Of a DNA stretch of 64,000 nucleotides, positions 29,228 to 34,421 are shown one piece after another (positions within the stretch are counted from its first letter, which is position 1; every line of letters begins with the position of its first letter). The position numbers and the translations under genes are program-made. The stretch comes from an uncultured Oscillospiraceae bacterium (GTDB lineage: Bacteria; Bacillota; Clostridia; Oscillospirales; Oscillospiraceae). The notes under the pieces were generated by a model that was not told the origin of the DNA, ran no database searches, and saw only the letters and a list, made by a program, of their open reading frames with translations. The stretch spans positions 9,006 to 73,005 of the forward strand of contig CANQBC010000005.1 of NCBI GenBank assembly GCA_947589225.1, in the 5' to 3' direction.

Positions 29228-29738
29228 TCACTTGTCAAAGGACGGGTTCATATAGTAGACGTTCTTCTGATCCATTTTGTCGAGAGTACGGCCCAGGGCC
29301 TCGCCGAAGCGCTGGAAATGGACGACTTCACGTTCACGCAGGAACTTCATGACGTTGTTGACATCCGGGTCGTCGGAGAGGCGCAGGATGTTGTCGTAGG
29401 TGGTGCGCGCCTTTTGCTCGGCGCCCATGTCCTCGGTGAGATCGGTAATGGTGTCGCCCTTGACGCCGATGGTGGCGGCTGTCCAGGGGGTACCGGAGGC
29501 AAATTGGGGGTAGATCCCGGCGGTATGATCCACGAAATAGGTGTCAAAGCCGGCCTTCTTGATTTCCTCGGGCGTCATGTCCCGGGTAAGCTGATGGACC
29601 ACTGCGGCTACCATCTCAAAGTGCCCAAGCTCCTCAACGCCGATGTCGGTGAGTAGACCGCGAAGCTCCGGGTAGGGCATGGAGTAGCGCTGGCTCAGAT
29701 AGCGCAGCGAAGCGGCAAGCTCTCCGTCAGGGCCACCT
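29228..29738 (-). pseudogene. cotJC: CotJC-type manganese-catalase-family gene lacking its first ~28 codons (interrupted by prophage insertion)
   Basis: The in-frame translation upstream of the track ORF reads ...SGGPDGELAASLRYLSQRYSMPYPELRGLLTDIGVEELGHFEM.... This matches the CotJC/Mn-catalase core from the conserved GG(P/A)DGELAA onward. Homology stops at about 29738, there is no start codon or RBS, and the integrase stop codon lies 25 nt away. Confidence 0.8.
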
Positions 29739-29763
29739 GATACCGTCAGACTATTATCATCGG

Positions 29764-31242
29764 CTATAAAAATAGTCGGTAGCTTATGGAGAGGGTCATT
29801 GTGGAGCGGTTGAAGGTGATGGTCTCGGCGATATTGCGGAGGGCGGTATTCTTTTCATCCAGGGGGGCGTCGGGGGAGGTGAGCGTATTATAGGCATCCC
29901 GTATTCTCTCCGACAGGGCGGCGGCAAGGAGGGCGGGAGAGGACTCTGTTTTTTCAGCGTTCGCAATCTCCTCTGTAAGGTCCTCCGCCTGACTGTCAAG
30001 CTCTGATTTAAAGTGCGTGAACTGGTCAAGGCCGATGGCGCCGGAAAGGTAAGCGTCCATCAGACGGGCGCTTCTCTTCTCTGTGTCGGCCAGAGAGGCG
30101 CGCAGACGGGCAAGCTCGCTGGCGCGTGCCGGGCTCTGGGGGGAGACGGTGAAGCTCAGGGGAACGGCGGACGACATATCCTCCCGAAGCTTTTCTATCA
30201 GCGCGTCGTGTAGAAGATCCACGCGGATATGCTGGGAGCTCCTGCACCGGCCGCGCATATAGTTGTTGCACTTGAAATATCGGGGCTTTACAAATATCAA
30301 CGTAGACCCGCACTCGGAGCACCGGACAAGGCCGGATAGCCAGTCCTTCAGCTCGTAGGTGGGGCGGGCCTTATAGCCCCACACAGCCTTGATCTCTGCG
30401 ATCCTCTTCTGCGCGGCCTCGAATACCTCCTCGGAGACAATGGGCTCATGAGAGGCGTCGGCCACGATGGTGTCCGGGTTTTCAAAGTTCCGCCTGGCTC
30501 TGCCTGTGGGCGTCCAACGGAGCTTTCCCACATACACGGGGTTGCGCAGCATATATTCAACCGTCCGGTTCTCAAAGGGGTTTCCCCGGTGGGTACGGAT
30601 CCCCTGGGCGTTGAGCCATTTGGCGATGGGGTAAAATCCCTCGCCGCCGTTGAAGCGGTCGAAGATCTCCCGGACAAGCCGCGCCTCCTCCGGAATAATC
30701 TCAAGGGTCGATTTCCGGCCGGGTTCCATATGGACCCGGTAGCCGAAGGGGGGCGTGGACTGGAGCTCCCCGCGCTCGGCTTTGACCTTCATTGTGCGCT
30801 TGACCTCCTGACTGAGGCGGATGGAATAGAATTCGTCAAACCACTCGATGATCCGCTCGATGAGGGAGGCGAAGGGGCCGCCGGGGAGGGGTTCGGACAC
30901 GGAGATCACGTCCACGCCGCACTGCTTGCGCAGCAGGGCCTTATAGACAATGCTCTCCTCCTGGTTTCGGGCGAAGCGCGAGAACTTCCACAGCAGTATG
31001 ACGTCGAAGGGAGCGGGGTTCTCCTTGGCGGCGCCGATCATCCTCTGAAAGGCGGGGCGGTTTTCGCTGCGCTTGCCGGATATGCCCTCGTCCATGAAGA
31101 TGAGGTCGTCGGGCAGGAGGATATTGTTAGCCGCGGCGTACTTGCGGATCTCAATGAGCTGGCTTTCCGGGGACTGATCCGCCTGTTCGTCGGTGGACAC
31201 GCGGATATACGCGGCGGCGGTGCGGAGGAGGGATGGGGGCAT
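29764..31242 (-). CDS. Large serine recombinase (phage integrase)
   Basis: N-terminal resolvase catalytic domain (AAAYIRVSTDEQ), recombinase domain, zinc ribbon (CSECGSTLIFVKPRYFKCNNYMRGRC) and a C-terminal coiled coil. Confidence 0.9.
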   Translation of the reverse strand: MPPSLLRTAAAYIRVSTDEQADQSPESQLIEIRKYAAANNILLPDDLIFMDEGISGKRSENRPAFQRMIGAAKENPAPFDVILLWKFSRFARNQEESIVYKALLRKQCGVDVISVSEPLPGGPFASLIERIIEWFDEFYSIRLSQEVKRTMKVKAERGELQSTPPFGYRVHMEPGRKSTLEIIPEEARLVREIFDRFNGGEGFYPIAKWLNAQGIRTHRGNPFENRTVEYMLRNPVYVGKLRWTPTGRARRNFENPDTIVADASHEPIVSEEVFEAAQKRIAEIKAVWGYKARPTYELKDWLSGLVRCSECGSTLIFVKPRYFKCNNYMRGRCRSSQHIRVDLLHDALIEKLREDMSSAVPLSFTVSPQSPARASELARLRASLADTEKRSARLMDAYLSGAIGLDQFTHFKSELDSQAEDLTEEIANAEKTESSPALLAAALSERIRDAYNTLTSPDAPLDEKNTALRNIAETITFNRSTMTLSISYRLFL

Positions 31243-31310
31243 GGGGGAGGACTCCTTTCTGTAAATTCATTGGCCGTGCCAGTGGTGGTAATTATGGCAG
31301 GGACGGTGTT

Positions 31311-31820
31311 TTAGCTTTCGTTATTATAATTTAATTCAAGAACAATGCCTTCGCTTTCCTTGTCACTAAGCCCATATTCTTCTGCGTCACTTACCCGGCA
31401 ATGAAAACGGTATGGTGAATCAAATGAGAGCGTGGGATATTCGATTGGAACATAACTTCCGCTCTCGTAGTATTTATAACTGTCAACGACCTTGCCGCCT
31501 TCAAAATTATCGCTTCTGTAATAATATTCCGATATTGCTACCAACAATGTACCGTTACTTACAGACTTAGCCTCACACACGATGTATTCCGCCCCCCTTG
31601 CAGGGTGAAGACTATCTGAAATTACATACTTAGGCTCACAATACGTAATGTCTATATAAACTTTATCAGATTTCTCTGAATCTGAGCTGTATGCTACTTC
31701 TACGTTATTCTTTTCGTTGAACTCCAATGGGAGGAGAAGAACAAGTAATAAAATTGTAACTATAGCAAACCCCCACAGTAAAACCCAGGGAAAATCTTTT
31801 TCTCGGACTCTAATAGCCAT
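31311..31820 (-). CDS. Membrane-anchored protein (N-terminal TM helix + ~130-aa external domain); last gene of the AT-rich cassette
   Basis: Start chosen at MAIRVREKDFPWVLLWGFAIVTILLLVLLLP. The longer 225-aa track ORF would overlap the upstream gene. AT-rich. No recognisable family. Confidence 0.5.
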   Translation of the reverse strand: MAIRVREKDFPWVLLWGFAIVTILLLVLLLPLEFNEKNNVEVAYSSDSEKSDKVYIDITYCEPKYVISDSLHPARGAEYIVCEAKSVSNGTLLVAISEYYYRSDNFEGGKVVDSYKYYESGSYVPIEYPTLSFDSPYRFHCRVSDAEEYGLSDKESEGIVLELNYNNES

Positions 31821-31840
31821 ACCTGAATGCCTTCTTTCTT

Positions 31841-32125
31841 TTATCGTTTTGTACGGTGCCGGAGGATCATATACCATGCTGCCAGGACGGCTGGGTAAGC
31901 GATAAGATAGATGATACAGTGAAGGTCGAAAGGTTCGACTTTGCCGAACAGCAGGAAGCACAGTACAAAGACCCACAGCACGGTACACAGGGACAGCAGC
32001 GTCTCTGTGACTGTGGGCCTGTTATATGGGTCTTCACACCACTTCCGCTTGTAGTCCTCCCGGTATAAAAACCGCAGGATTATCTGACCGATAAAACGGA
32101 AGGGGCCGGGAAAAGAATTACTCAT
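31841..32125 (-). CDS. Small membrane protein (2 predicted TM helices)
   Basis: 94-aa ORF with hydrophobic segments LLSLCTVLWVFVLCFLLF and IIYLIAYPAVLAAWYMIL. Same strand and tightly spaced with its neighbours. Confidence 0.45.
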   Translation of the reverse strand: MSNSFPGPFRFIGQIILRFLYREDYKRKWCEDPYNRPTVTETLLSLCTVLWVFVLCFLLFGKVEPFDLHCIIYLIAYPAVLAAWYMILRHRTKR

Positions 32126-32132
32126 GGGCGGG

Positions 32133-32330
32133 TCACTTTCCGTCGAAATCTCCGCGAGTGGTTTTACGAATCAAGTAAACAAACGGAGCGTATAAAAGAA
32201 CTGTCAACAAAGCACCAAGGCTGATGTGAGCGAACATACTTAAGGAAACTGTAATTGCAGATGGTATAAAAAGCCACAGAATAATAAGACCGATTCTTTT
32301 TACAATACGCATATTGGGAATCTCCTTCAA
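32133..32330 (-). CDS. Small membrane protein (2 predicted TM helices)
   Basis: 65-aa ORF (IGLIILWLFIPSAITVSL, LGALLTVLLYAPFVYLI). Its start codon directly abuts the stop of the upstream gene. Confidence 0.45.
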   Translation of the reverse strand: MKEIPNMRIVKRIGLIILWLFIPSAITVSLSMFAHISLGALLTVLLYAPFVYLIRKTTRGDFDGK

Positions 32331-32885
32331 TTATTTCTTTTTCATAGAAAAAGCGGTAAACAAGGCGCCGGGTATAAAAACGATACCTATTGCCGTAGCA
32401 AAAAAGAAAAGCGCACCAATTATACCGAAAACAATTGAAACGGCGGTAGACTTAGAGAGAATCGCAGCCAAGTTGAAGAGAAACCCGTCAGGTGAGATTT
32501 TCCCGTGTAATATGAAAAAGAACACAGGAACCAATATAATCATAATCAGTGAGGCTGCGGAGCGATTATCTGAGTTTCCGTAAGCTGCATAGTCTTTTTT
32601 TTCTTGTGCTTTTTGCTTTGCCTTATATGAGTTTGCGGCCACACCTGAACAGGCCCATATACCGAGAAGAATTGTTACAAGAATTTGGACAAACGTGCTC
32701 TTTCCTGCCAGAAAAGGAGTGACGCTATAAGCGAGAATGGCGGAAGAAACGGAGTGAATGAACAGGTATGCAAAGACACTTTTCAAATGCCTGATAAGTA
32801 CTTGAAAAACTGAAACAATTATTTTATATACAAAGTCAAAAGCGACAAAAATCAAAATGCAATGAAAAAAAGCCAAGTTGTGCAC
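32331..32885 (-). CDS. Polytopic membrane protein (about 5-6 TM helices); first gene of the AT-rich cassette
   Basis: 184-aa ORF that is hydrophobic throughout, with one basic loop (KAKQKAQEKKD). The start is either the GTG at 32885 or, more likely, the TTG at 32876, which lies 8 nt after AAAGGAAG. Confidence 0.5.
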   Translation of the reverse strand: MHNLAFFHCILIFVAFDFVYKIIVSVFQVLIRHLKSVFAYLFIHSVSSAILAYSVTPFLAGKSTFVQILVTILLGIWACSGVAANSYKAKQKAQEKKDYAAYGNSDNRSAASLIMIILVPVFFFILHGKISPDGFLFNLAAILSKSTAVSIVFGIIGALFFFATAIGIVFIPGALFTAFSMKKK

Positions 32886-32988
32886 TTCCTTTCGCCCGGA
32901 GTATCACTGCTCCGGATTTATTTTTTTATATATTTCGTTATGTCGATGACTTTGGGGCCGGAAAGGAAAAATGAATTATTTACTGAAT

Positions 32989-33513
32989 TTACCCTACTTG
33001 CTTAGACTCCGGGCGCTTTAGGAACTGGGCGTCGCTGGCAATTTTCGTTAGCTCATACATAGCCGCGCCTTGCCCAGCCTCATTCAGAAGCATAAAAAGA
33101 TTGTAGAGCTTATTGAAATTTACCATTTCTGAGTCTTTTGGAAGCGATTCTTCAAGGCGTTTCTCATATCCGGCAAAACTTGGAACACCCTCCTTGAGGA
33201 GAATATAAATCTTCTCAAGGAGCGAGGCGTTGAAGAAATCATTATACATATCAATGTGCCATTCACTGTCGCCTGTGGCAAGTTTAACTTTAGAGCTAAA
33301 GCCAAACTCTCCCATAATATCATCGACATTATAAATATCACAAAGGGCAATAAACGTATTGACGCGGGGAGTGGAGACGCCGGATTCGTAGCCGTAAAGT
33401 GTTTTCGTGCTAATGTCTATACCGCGATTCTTCAGTTTTTCAACAACTTCTTCAGAAGACAGGCCGGAACTTGTACGCAGATTCCGCAAGATCCCAGCCG
33501 GTAAATCGTTCAT
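32989..33513 (-). CDS. XRE-family HTH repressor (CI-like) with C-terminal domain
   Basis: HTH region LRTSSGLSSEEVVEKLKNRGIDISTKTLYGYESG. The ATG at 33513 lies 8 nt after AGGAGG. It is divergent from a Cro-like gene. Confidence 0.75.
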   Translation of the reverse strand: MNDLPAGILRNLRTSSGLSSEEVVEKLKNRGIDISTKTLYGYESGVSTPRVNTFIALCDIYNVDDIMGEFGFSSKVKLATGDSEWHIDMYNDFFNASLLEKIYILLKEGVPSFAGYEKRLEESLPKDSEMVNFNKLYNLFMLLNEAGQGAAMYELTKIASDAQFLKRPESKQVG

Positions 33514-33541
33514 TATATTACCTCCTAACGTTAATAACTTA

Positions 33542-33570
33542 ATTGTAAAACGAGGTTTTTTGAAAGTCAA
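33542..33570 (-). promoter_or_regulatory. Candidate repressor promoter (minus strand)
   Basis: On the minus strand: TTGACT (complement of 33565-33570), 17 nt spacer, TACAAT (complement of 33542-33547). Confidence 0.5.
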
Positions 33571-33601
33571 TAAATTTTTCTTAAAAATAAAGAAAAAAGT
33601 A

Positions 33602-33651
33602 TTGACTTTCTTAGAAACTAAGATTATAATTTGCTTATCTTAGAAACTAAG
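33602..33651 (+). promoter_or_regulatory. Early (Cro-side) promoter with two identical palindromic operators
   Basis: TTGACT (33602-33607), 17 nt spacer, TATAAT (33625-33630). The operator TCTTAG-AAA-CTAAGA occurs at 33609-33623 (inside the spacer) and at 33638-33652 (just downstream of the -10). A degenerate copy CTTAAAAATAAAG lies at 33580-33592, between the two -35 boxes. Confidence 0.6.
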
Positions 33652-33669
33652 AAAAGAGGCGATTAAAAA

Positions 33670-33870
33670 GTGAGCGTAGAAAAAAGGATTGCAGACGAGA
33701 TAAAAAAATCTGGCATGACCGTTGCGGCCATCTGCCGAATGACCGGCATTAAACCGGGGGCGCTTTATCCTGCTGTAACAGGAAAGCGCGAGCTTCGCGC
33801 AGATGAGTTCCTGGCGTTATGCCAGATTTTACGTCTTGACCCGCGGGATGTCGCGGACAAAAGCGCGTGA
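33670..33870 (+). CDS. Cro-like small HTH protein
   Basis: 66 aa with a GTG start after AGAGG. HTH region MTVAAICRMTGIKPGALYPAVTGKR. It is the first gene of the rightward operon. Confidence 0.6.
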   Translation: MSVEKRIADEIKKSGMTVAAICRMTGIKPGALYPAVTGKRELRADEFLALCQILRLDPRDVADKSA

Positions 33871-33886
33871 GAGGGGCGTGAGCGGG

Positions 33887-34096
33887 ATGGAACGGGTCTA
33901 TACGATTAAACAGGCAAGGCTCCTTGCGGGGCTGACGCAGGAAAAAACGGCGGCTGAAATGGGAATATCTCGTGACCGCTACATGAAGCTGGAGAAAAAC
34001 CCGGAGCTTGTGACAGTTGGACAGGCGCGGGAGATAAGCAGGATCACCGGCATACCGTTTGAACAGATCTCTTTTGAATATAGAGAGAGGAGGTGA
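33887..34096 (+). CDS. XRE-family HTH protein
   Basis: IKQARLLAGLTQEKTAAEMGISRDRYMKLEKNP is a classic HTH_3 pattern. The start was refined to the ATG at 33887. Confidence 0.6.
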   Translation: MERVYTIKQARLLAGLTQEKTAAEMGISRDRYMKLEKNPELVTVGQAREISRITGIPFEQISFEYRERR

Positions 34097-34101
34097 GCCG
34101 G

Positions 34102-34248
34102 GTGAATCCAGAGCAGGTCAAACACGTGGTTGAAATCCTTATCAAGGCCATGGAGCGGGCGGTCGAGAAAAAGGACGCGACCCCGATAGAGGCGGAAGCT
34201 CTATGCAGGATCGCATCGGTTTTGATTGAGTTCACCAAGATCGTTTAG
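34102..34248 (+). CDS. Small hypothetical protein (48 aa), not in the ORF track
   Basis: A GTG at 34102 follows GGAGGTGA. It reads VNPEQVKHVVEILIKAMERAVEKKDATPIEAEALCRIASVLIEFTKIV. Coding status is uncertain. Confidence 0.3.
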   Translation: MNPEQVKHVVEILIKAMERAVEKKDATPIEAEALCRIASVLIEFTKIV

Positions 34249-34421
34249 CCTTCGGTTTTGTGAACATCCTCGGCGATTTCGAGGATTTTGTTGTAGACAG
34301 CCTCAAAGAATTCGGCCACATTTTCTGCACACATCCAAGGCGCAGCGTTTTCTGTACTGGACATAGCAGCTATTGTGATTTCTTTTGCGGCATCTATCGC
34401 ATATTGCTTGGGTCGATTCAT
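34245..34421 (-). CDS. Small hypothetical protein (58 aa) on the opposite strand
   Basis: The start at MNRPKQYAIDAAKEITIAAMSS is preceded by GGAGAGGAGGTGAGGAA. The longer track ORF is rejected. Confidence 0.4.
   Translation of the reverse strand: MNRPKQYAIDAAKEITIAAMSSTENAAPWMCAENVAEFFEAVYNKILEIAEDVHKTEG

Follow-up and report, generated by a model that had tools for sequence, protein, structure and literature searches.

We analyzed a window of 64,000 nucleotides (nt; the whole stretch of DNA considered here, to which all coordinates refer) from an uncultured Oscillospiraceae bacterium (contig CANQBC010000005.1). The window contains a prophage in which four small genes, here named A, B, C and D, lie between the gene for a repressor (R) and that for a large serine integrase. 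Downstream, the window encodes a terminase, a portal protein, and major head, tail and internal virion proteins, and the element is thus a real prophage. Exact look-ups placed the same locus in several public assemblies. We conclude that the four genes are probably an independently assorting mosaic, not a four-part unit, because diverged homologues of C and D occur independently of each other in other prophages.

Genes and features of the interval

The interval and its flanks have the following layout, with lengths in amino acids (aa):

33542-33654: genetic switch, with divergent promoter-like sites and repeated operator-like palindromes (TTAGAAACTAAGA; repeats D4, I4 and I9)
33602-33630, plus strand: promoter-like site for the cro-like genes (promoter scan)
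33570-33542, minus strand: promoter-like site for R (promoter scan)
32989-33513, minus strand: repressor R, 174 aa, XRE-family helix-turn-helix (HTH) protein with a C-terminal domain of no assigned family; first gene of the leftward lysogeny operon
32896-32915, plus strand: GC-rich hairpin CCGGAG...CTCCGG, with a T-tract on the plus strand only
32331-32885, minus strand: gene A, GTG start, 184 aa (181 aa from the TTG at 32876 in public gene calls)
32133-32312, minus strand: gene B, ATG start, 59 aa, with a ribosome binding site (RBS; GAAGGAG) 8 nt upstream
31841-32125, minus strand: gene C, 94 aa
31311-31820, minus strand: gene D, 169 aa
29764-31242, minus strand: large serine integrase, 492 aa; last gene of the leftward operon

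The four genes are co-directional and tightly packed, as a preliminary description of this DNA had reported, with gaps of 18, 7 and 20 nt between A and B, B and C, and C and D, respectively; the start of the integrase gene follows D after 68 nt. Their location between repressor and integrase, on the strand of the repressor, is supported by database assignments. R matches HTH_31 (3.5e-7) and HTH_3 (1.5e-5) of Pfam and a transcriptional regulator/repressor PHROG; the integrase has the Pfam domains Resolvase, Recombinase and Zn_ribbon_recom and matches a PHROG integrase at 5e-109. Hydropathy plots confirm that all four encode membrane proteins, with about five transmembrane (TM) segments predicted for A, two each for B and C, and a single N-terminal one for D. 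The sizes proposed earlier hold for A (~184 aa; 181-184), C (94 aa) and D (169 aa), whereas the 65-aa version of B, which begins at a TTG and abuts the stop of A, is better read as 59 aa from the ATG with its RBS. A 225-aa open reading frame (ORF) with a GTG start was considered for gene D and rejected, as it overlaps C.

None of the four proteins falls in a recognizable family, again as described before: no match was obtained at E <= 0.05 in Pfam, PHROGs, PADLOC and NCBIfam, and no catalogued defense protein of PADLOC-DB 2.0 was matched at E <= 1. The region has no blastn match in 50,697 phage records, and a scan of 30800-34300 with Rfam returned no RNA family.

No leftward terminator-like site was identified between R and the integrase start (terminator scan of 31000-34200). 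The preliminary description had noted only a weak hairpin between R and A and no convincing terminator. This stands, with the addition that the T-tract of the hairpin at 32896-32915 is antisense to the cassette and thus cannot make it a terminator for repressor transcripts. The only match of the promoter scan between R and A (32848-32821) lies inside A. A promoter belonging to the cassette itself was considered in this gap and rejected: the TTGACA/TCGACA upstream of the hairpin is conserved, but by eye it is followed by no acceptable -10. The two promoter-like sites of the switch score 10/12 and 11/12 in the scan, and two cro-like HTH genes on the plus strand face the switch.

The layout resembles the immR-immA-int arrangement of ICEBs1 and phi105, in which a repressor, a metalloprotease anti-repressor and an integrase are encoded on one strand as one unit. 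The window has the same order from repressor to integrase with cargo between them; it differs in that its repressor lacks an ImmA partner and four extra membrane-protein genes are inserted. Closer to the ICEBs1/phi105 type are two loci fetched for comparison, one with the order repressor, HEXXH protein, C and integrase (L018) and one with repressor, Peptidase_M78, SIR2 and integrase (L021). Given this layout and the lack of a leftward terminator, we predict that A-D would be transcribed with the repressor in the lysogen.

Composition, exchange and assortment

The GC content is 0.33-0.45 from 31300 to ~33700, compared with 0.55-0.65 on both flanks, and this AT-rich tract takes in the repressor and the switch region in addition to the cassette. 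The GC content at third codon positions (GC3) separates the four genes: it is 0.38 in A, 0.35 in B and 0.36 in D, compared with 0.62 in C, 0.78 in the integrase and 0.66-0.85 in the other prophage genes checked. With an overall GC content of 0.50, C is not AT-rich. C and its homologues have GC3 values of 0.59-0.90 that track their own phage backbones; homologues of D are all AT-rich, and A, B, D and the D homologues together span 0.35-0.41. The earlier picture of an AT-rich foreign cassette is therefore right for A, B and D and wrong for C, and the tract is not limited to the cassette.

Other contigs and prophage loci, labeled L003 to L021, were fetched for comparison. A blastn mismatch map against L003 delimits a recently exchanged block at 31264-32947 that comprises the hairpin and A-B-C-D. 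There are four mismatches in 31264-32915 (~1.65 kb) and four more in 32916-32947, and the step in identity is sharp at both borders. Outside the block, the repressor of L003 is unrelated to that of the window and the N-terminus of the integrase is ~91% identical at the DNA level. A near-identical block beside an unrelated repressor and such an integrase indicates a recent block exchange between two phages. As the two copies are practically identical, they demonstrate mobility of the block and not functional coupling. A, B and D combine two marks of a moron, atypical composition and exchange independent of the flanking phage genes. The proposal of a recently acquired moron fits these three compositionally foreign genes, and the block was indeed swapped between phages; C does not share the foreign composition.

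The preliminary description had suggested a four-component system and, as a check, a search for the unit elsewhere. It had named a lack of co-occurrence outside this phage as evidence against such a system, and this is essentially what we observe: the only other copy with all four genes is the near-identical recent transfer in L003. More diverged homologues have the gene orders listed below, where ">" leads to a gene on the shared strand and "<" marks one on the opposite strand:

L009: S24-repressor > 211-aa single-pass protein > C > tyrosine integrase
L012: C > <toxin-antitoxin remnant > serine integrase (77% identical to that of the window) > cotJC
L014 and L015: repressor > 122-aa single-pass protein > C (then ToxN in L015)
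L017: repressor > 167 aa > 303 aa > ToxN > C > <GNAT-like toxin, <antitoxin > tyrosine integrase
L018: repressor > HEXXH (ImmA-like) protein > C > tyrosine integrase
L019: repressor > 227 aa > NYN-domain protein > C > tyrosine integrase
L006 and L007: repressor (88% identical), then D (65%) directly after it but inverted, then C (48%) on the strand of the repressor
L020: CI-type repressor > D-like gene (48%), then <SocA_Panacea; no C
L021: D-like gene in a lysogeny region with repressor, Peptidase_M78, SIR2_2 and integrase

No homologue of A, B or D was identified in L009, L012, L014/L015, L017, L018 or L019, so that C occurs without these genes in at least six other prophage contexts. In L006 the inversion of D relative to C means that the two share no transcript. 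A partial ORF upstream of D in L008 appears C-like by eye and was not confirmed by hidden Markov model (HMM) search. Lacking altogether are relatives of A and B: phmmer found no homologue of either in any of the fetched loci. We conclude from the independent assortment of the diverged homologues that the cassette is a mosaic. The four-component system is not borne out, given in addition that A and B have no relatives and that C differs in composition.

Equivalent slots in related prophages hold ToxN, NYN, SIR2_2 and SocA_Panacea genes, as identified with Pfam; the GNAT-like toxin/antitoxin pair was read from the sequence and has no Pfam match. The genes just upstream of C (L009 4698-5333; L014 831-1199; L017 4160-5071; L019 4257-4940) encode mostly single-pass membrane proteins with Tyr/Ser/Asp-rich external domains of no assigned family, similar to D in architecture and not homologous to it. 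The slot thus seems to favor membrane-anchored surface proteins.

In two loci, direct repeats bracket the cargo upstream of C: 52-nt repeats with 100% identity around ToxN (L017 5093-5144 and 5989-6040), and 37-nt repeats with 97% identity around the NYN-domain gene (L019 5005-5041 and 5989-6025). The repeats consist of the RBS and first codons of C, and a truncated C' ORF is left upstream. This suggests that the 5' end of C may act as a recombination anchor for swapping defense cargo. A degenerate remnant of the 5' end of C was sought downstream of R in the window with blastn-short, and the candidate was not significant; a 26-nt repeat (77%) that might derive B from a duplicated 5' end of C was judged to be at chance level.

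The hairpin is part of a conserved element found just downstream of three different or diverged repressors (window 32896-32947; L006 ~1010-1045; L003 ~1030-1080). The element consists of TTGACA/TCGACA, an A-rich run and the CCGGAG hairpin, with the T-tract on the strand opposite to the repressor. In L006 the equivalent hairpin terminates the convergent D gene (L006 sequence 979-1110); in the window no convergent gene is left at this position. Two plus-strand promoter-like sites lie inside the cassette (32435-32462 and 32512-32540, promoter scan). The hairpin of the window may be a relic, or a stop for antisense transcripts from the AT-rich cassette.

The proteins and their families

The N-terminal segment of C is basic and contains the conserved motif NSFPG..(R)FIG..LR.IY..Y..RW..D. 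Two TM helices follow, linked by a short conserved loop (VEPG..H), and the C-terminus is again basic. The predicted topology is N-in/C-in. Its homologues are 38-73% identical (alignments A4 and A5) and come from Oscillospiraceae metagenome-assembled genomes from rabbit gut and related assemblies. They are always in the interval between repressor and integrase and on that strand, where C most often directly precedes the integrase, or is parted from it by opposite-strand cargo only. C is accompanied by a serine integrase in some loci and a tyrosine integrase in others, and the repressors are unrelated; it is thus not bound to one recombination or immunity system. Gene callers left C uncalled in three public copies of the locus. 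No match to C was found by tblastn in the 50,697 phage records or in a scan of IMG/VR viral contigs, and a sequence search of the PDB with the C profile gave nothing significant.

Three close relatives of C have a weak, near-full-length match to Phage_holin_2 (PF23778; 13.5-14.5 bits, E 0.04-0.09; Pfam cut-off 32 bits), and no such match was obtained for the C of the window. We regard the match as a lead, not a finding. The assignment of C as a phage holin was rejected, as the best score is 14.5 bits against the cut-off of 32 and the gene is in a lysogeny operon, not beside an endolysin.

D consists of an N-terminal TM anchor (residues ~12-31) and a 137-aa, Tyr-rich ectodomain that is acidic (isoelectric point (pI) 4.4) and modeled as a beta-barrel. 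A profile search of 1.84 billion representative proteins returned only 20 relatives. The close ones are TM-anchored and prophage-borne. Of the distant ones, some are zinc-ribbon/SHOCT-TM-domain proteins, and the others are lipoproteins that have lipobox cysteines and carry the domain once or in up to three tandem copies. Two of these lipoproteins are encoded in ordinary chromosomal neighborhoods, and a chromosomal D-domain lipoprotein adjoins genes for surface proteins and polysaccharides. The domain of D is predicted to lie outside the membrane, both from its lipoprotein relatives and from the positive-inside rule as applied to the flanks of the anchor. No match to D was found by tblastn in the 50,697 phage records, and none in a scan of JGI metagenomes with alignment A1.

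AlphaFold2 predicts a beta-rich fold for the ectodomain from a 15-sequence alignment (predicted local distance difference test (pLDDT) 86, predicted TM-score (pTM) 0.71); the model from 3 sequences reaches a pLDDT of 43 only. Foldseek searches of PDB and BFVD returned nothing at E <= 0.001. The leading PDB matches, and some in BFVD, are oligonucleotide/oligosaccharide-binding (OB) folds (RPA32, Teb1, POT1 and IF1), and are weak (E >= 0.03, target-normalized TM-score <= 0.5). The PDB sequence search with the D profile gave nothing significant. The C-terminal part of the D domain is matched 13 times in a protein of 3347 aa (P0013), which suggests that this giant protein, presumably located at the surface, contains tandem repeats of the domain or of one of its sub-motifs. 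Downstream of the D homologue in L008, an ORF (848-1225) has an N-terminal half that by eye is like a Mob/Pre-type relaxase (..HNARRYKRG..) and a C-terminal half with a weak SLH-domain match; this is possibly a junction of a mobile element with a host SLH gene, or an assembly chimera.

The ratio of non-synonymous to synonymous substitution rates (dN/dS) of C is 0.21-0.33. For D, the proportions of non-synonymous and synonymous differences are 0.21-0.34 (pN) and 0.75-0.79 (pS). With far fewer non-synonymous than synonymous changes, both are under purifying selection and are thus real genes.

A and B are basic membrane proteins encoded by ORFans (ORFs without relatives). A has 181-184 aa, ~5 TM segments and a pI of 9.8. 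Among 5.8 billion protein clusters A found only itself, and tblastn with A against the 50,697 phage records gave nothing. Homologues of A and B were not identified in scans of viral contigs, and none of B in a scan of JGI metagenome contigs.

Candidate functions

We consider the chances somewhat better than even that the interval is an accessory ("moron") slot of the lysogeny operon that holds four separate envelope proteins, most likely with an exclusion function. The earlier suggestion of an exclusion or defense module is retained as a candidate on the basis of the lysogeny-module position, the foreign composition, the exchange and the defense cargo in equivalent slots, and is given up as a four-part system.

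In this model, the host of the phage would be an Oscillospiraceae-like, spore-forming gut bacterium, and the genes of the slot would differ in origin and age and form no co-evolved single system. C would be the resident, a conserved two-TM hairpin protein with backbone-like codon usage that occupies the same slot in many related prophages. D would be AT-rich cargo, a membrane-anchored, outward-facing protein with an acidic, OB-like beta-barrel. A and B would be AT-rich ORFan cargo, one polytopic and one with two TM segments. Each protein alone may protect the lysogen at the cell envelope from incoming phages. We infer that envelope protection is the most likely role because the slot is used for ToxN, NYN, SIR2, Panacea and toxin-antitoxin genes, and because the architecture of the proteins is exclusion-like. 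We propose tentatively, and with rather less than an even chance, that C, D or both serve in phage exclusion or defense. D is the best candidate and C the second.

Superinfection exclusion in Gram-positive bacteria classically relies on proteins that are encoded in the lysogeny module, tethered to the membrane and exposed to the outside. The lactococcal Sie2009 proteins provide one example. Another is Ltp of Streptococcus thermophilus phage TP-J34, a surface-tethered exclusion protein that is encoded in the lysogeny module, expressed from the prophage and regarded as a moron (PMC3952083). D is similar to both in its location in the lysogeny module on the strand of the repressor, its small size, its anchor on the outer face of the cytoplasmic membrane and its exposed, negatively charged domain (ectodomain pI 4.4, predicted external). 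Like them (PMC3952083), it has the character of a moron whose relatives are dispersed among bacterial genomes. The location between repressor and integrase is shared by the homologues of C and D; the membrane-anchored exposed domain is found in D, as a prediction. D differs from Ltp in its anchor, which is a TM helix in D and a lipid in Ltp, and in its predicted fold, as the active part of Ltp is a pair of helical repeat domains and the ectodomain of D is modeled as a beta-barrel with weak OB-like matches. No homology of D to Ltp or Sie2009 was detected with Pfam, PHROG and NCBIfam, or with Foldseek against PDB and BFVD at E <= 0.001. By analogy, the charged domain of D on the outer membrane face could interfere with the phage tail tip or with DNA entry.

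AbiP and PdpSau, prophage- or plasmid-encoded abortive-infection proteins, have an N-terminal TM helix followed by an OB-fold (PMC10127798), an architecture that D, with its TM anchor and weakly OB-like domain, resembles. Their OB domain is cytoplasmic, basic and nucleic acid-binding, whereas the ectodomain of D is acidic and predicted to be extracytoplasmic, and pdpSau is located in the lysis module, unlike D. Membership of D in this group was rejected on the basis of the pI of 4.4, the predicted external domain and the lack of a PADLOC match.

T4 Imm is a small inner-membrane protein with two TM segments that blocks DNA injection. C, a 94-aa two-TM hairpin with predicted N-in/C-in topology and a basic C-terminus, is like Imm and the class II holins in these respects. 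It differs in that its gene belongs to a lysogeny operon and neither to a lysis cassette nor to the early region of a lytic phage, and we know of no counterpart in Imm or holins of its conserved, 40-residue cytoplasmic N-terminal segment. The library scans, through which alone Imm was compared, gave no match to C. C might be a small inner-membrane blocker that follows the logic of Imm, or a holin-like effector.

A more elaborate proposal, which we consider rather unlikely, is that C is a new two-TM family fixed in the repressor-to-integrase operon of Oscillospiraceae prophages, that its RBS and 5' codons are the anchor for swapping cargo (ToxN, NYN and perhaps A-B), and that C and/or D are new exclusion proteins.

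Several points weigh against a slot of separate exclusion proteins. A-D have no sequence or structural similarity to any characterized exclusion or defense protein. The D domain is not specific to phages, as its distant lipoprotein relatives are in ordinary chromosomal neighborhoods. The backbone-like composition and constant position of C could indicate a housekeeping role in lysogeny, not defense. The three differences between A of the window and A of L003 are all non-synonymous and offer no evidence of constraint, though their number is too small to interpret. Finally, the four genes did travel together once (L003), and a functional link within this lineage is conceivable.

Among the alternatives is that the genes encode lysogenic-conversion or lysogeny-maintenance factors, with roles in envelope remodeling, colonization or spore-surface traits, or, for C, in modulating induction or integration. 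We consider this unlikely. The constancy of C in the operon and its codon usage, which are those of a core lysogeny gene, would be in keeping with such roles, as would the occurrence of the D domain in a chromosomal lipoprotein beside surface-protein and polysaccharide genes and the apparent interruption of a spore-coat gene by the prophage (see below). They are harder to reconcile with the range of integrases and repressors that accompany C, and with neighboring genes that are mostly defense and toxin cargo, and no known conversion family such as GtrA was detected with Pfam.

Equally improbable, in our estimate, are abortive-infection effectors, with A as a RexB-like channel or C as a holin-like pore that would depolarize the membrane after infection is sensed. 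In the lambda cI-rexA-rexB operon, RexB is a polytopic membrane protein co-transcribed with the repressor. A is likewise polytopic, and its gene directly follows that of the repressor, on the same strand and without an intervening terminator. It is an ORFan, however, and no soluble, cytoplasmic RexA-like sensor is present; searches of PHROGs and PADLOC (which may not hold Rex models) gave no match to A. The holin match of the three C relatives would suit a pore, yet it is far below the cut-off and absent from the C of the window. Abortive-infection-type cargo such as ToxN does occur in neighboring slots, whereas the predicted outward-facing domain of D suits exclusion better than intracellular sensing.

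Slightly less probable still is that A and B are non-functional: either genes in decay or chance ORFs, in foreign AT-rich DNA that came with C and D. Consistent with this are the lack of homologues in every collection searched, the start of A (no ATG, and a poorly spaced RBS) and the three non-synonymous substitutions. An open frame of 184 codons is, however, very unlikely to arise by chance in DNA of ~40% GC (we estimate ~6e-6, from ~6% stops per codon). Both proteins have clean patterns of TM helices and were called by public gene callers, and B has a canonical RBS and an ATG start.

Least probable, and by our estimate very improbable, is that A-D are subunits of one four-component membrane exclusion or abortive-infection complex that works only as a set: the tight co-directional packing with short gaps, the movement of the whole block into a second phage background and the adjacency of C and D in at most two more diverged lineages (clear in L006/L007, with the C-like ORF of L008 unconfirmed by HMM) are outweighed by C without A, B and D in at least six contexts, D-like genes without C (L020 and L021), the inverted D of L006, the lack of homologues of A and B, and the sharply different codon composition of C.

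Integration site and significance

A gene for a cotJC-like Mn-catalase (29228-29760, minus strand) adjoins the integrase. It is truncated at the N-terminus, with a Pfam match that begins at profile position 55, and its frame (..GGPDGELAASLRYLSQRY..) reaches ~29737, just past the stop codon of the integrase (29764). A search of the window for the remaining half of cotJC gave nothing. In L012, the 77%-identical integrase also adjoins a truncated Mn_catalase gene. The prophage thus appears to be inserted inside a spore-coat gene. Sporulation genes are known to be interrupted by intervening elements that serine recombinases excise (PMC4191935, PMC5595907), and the arrangement at cotJC in the window is similar.

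Accessory membrane proteins of lysogeny modules are of a known kind, and as it stands the interval holds a typical set of uncharacterized lysogeny-module genes. The families of C and D have no model in Pfam, PHROG or NCBIfam. The main value at present is in two families that can be searched by HMM (alignments A3 for D and A5 for C), and in the corrected picture of the slot. The repeat-bracketed cargo beside C would mark a predictable hot spot for new defense genes in these prophages. No exclusion protein is known to us from Oscillospiraceae, an abundant and poorly cultured group of gut bacteria. Should C or D indeed prevent phage entry, they would to our knowledge be the first in this group, and their two unnamed families would be new additions.

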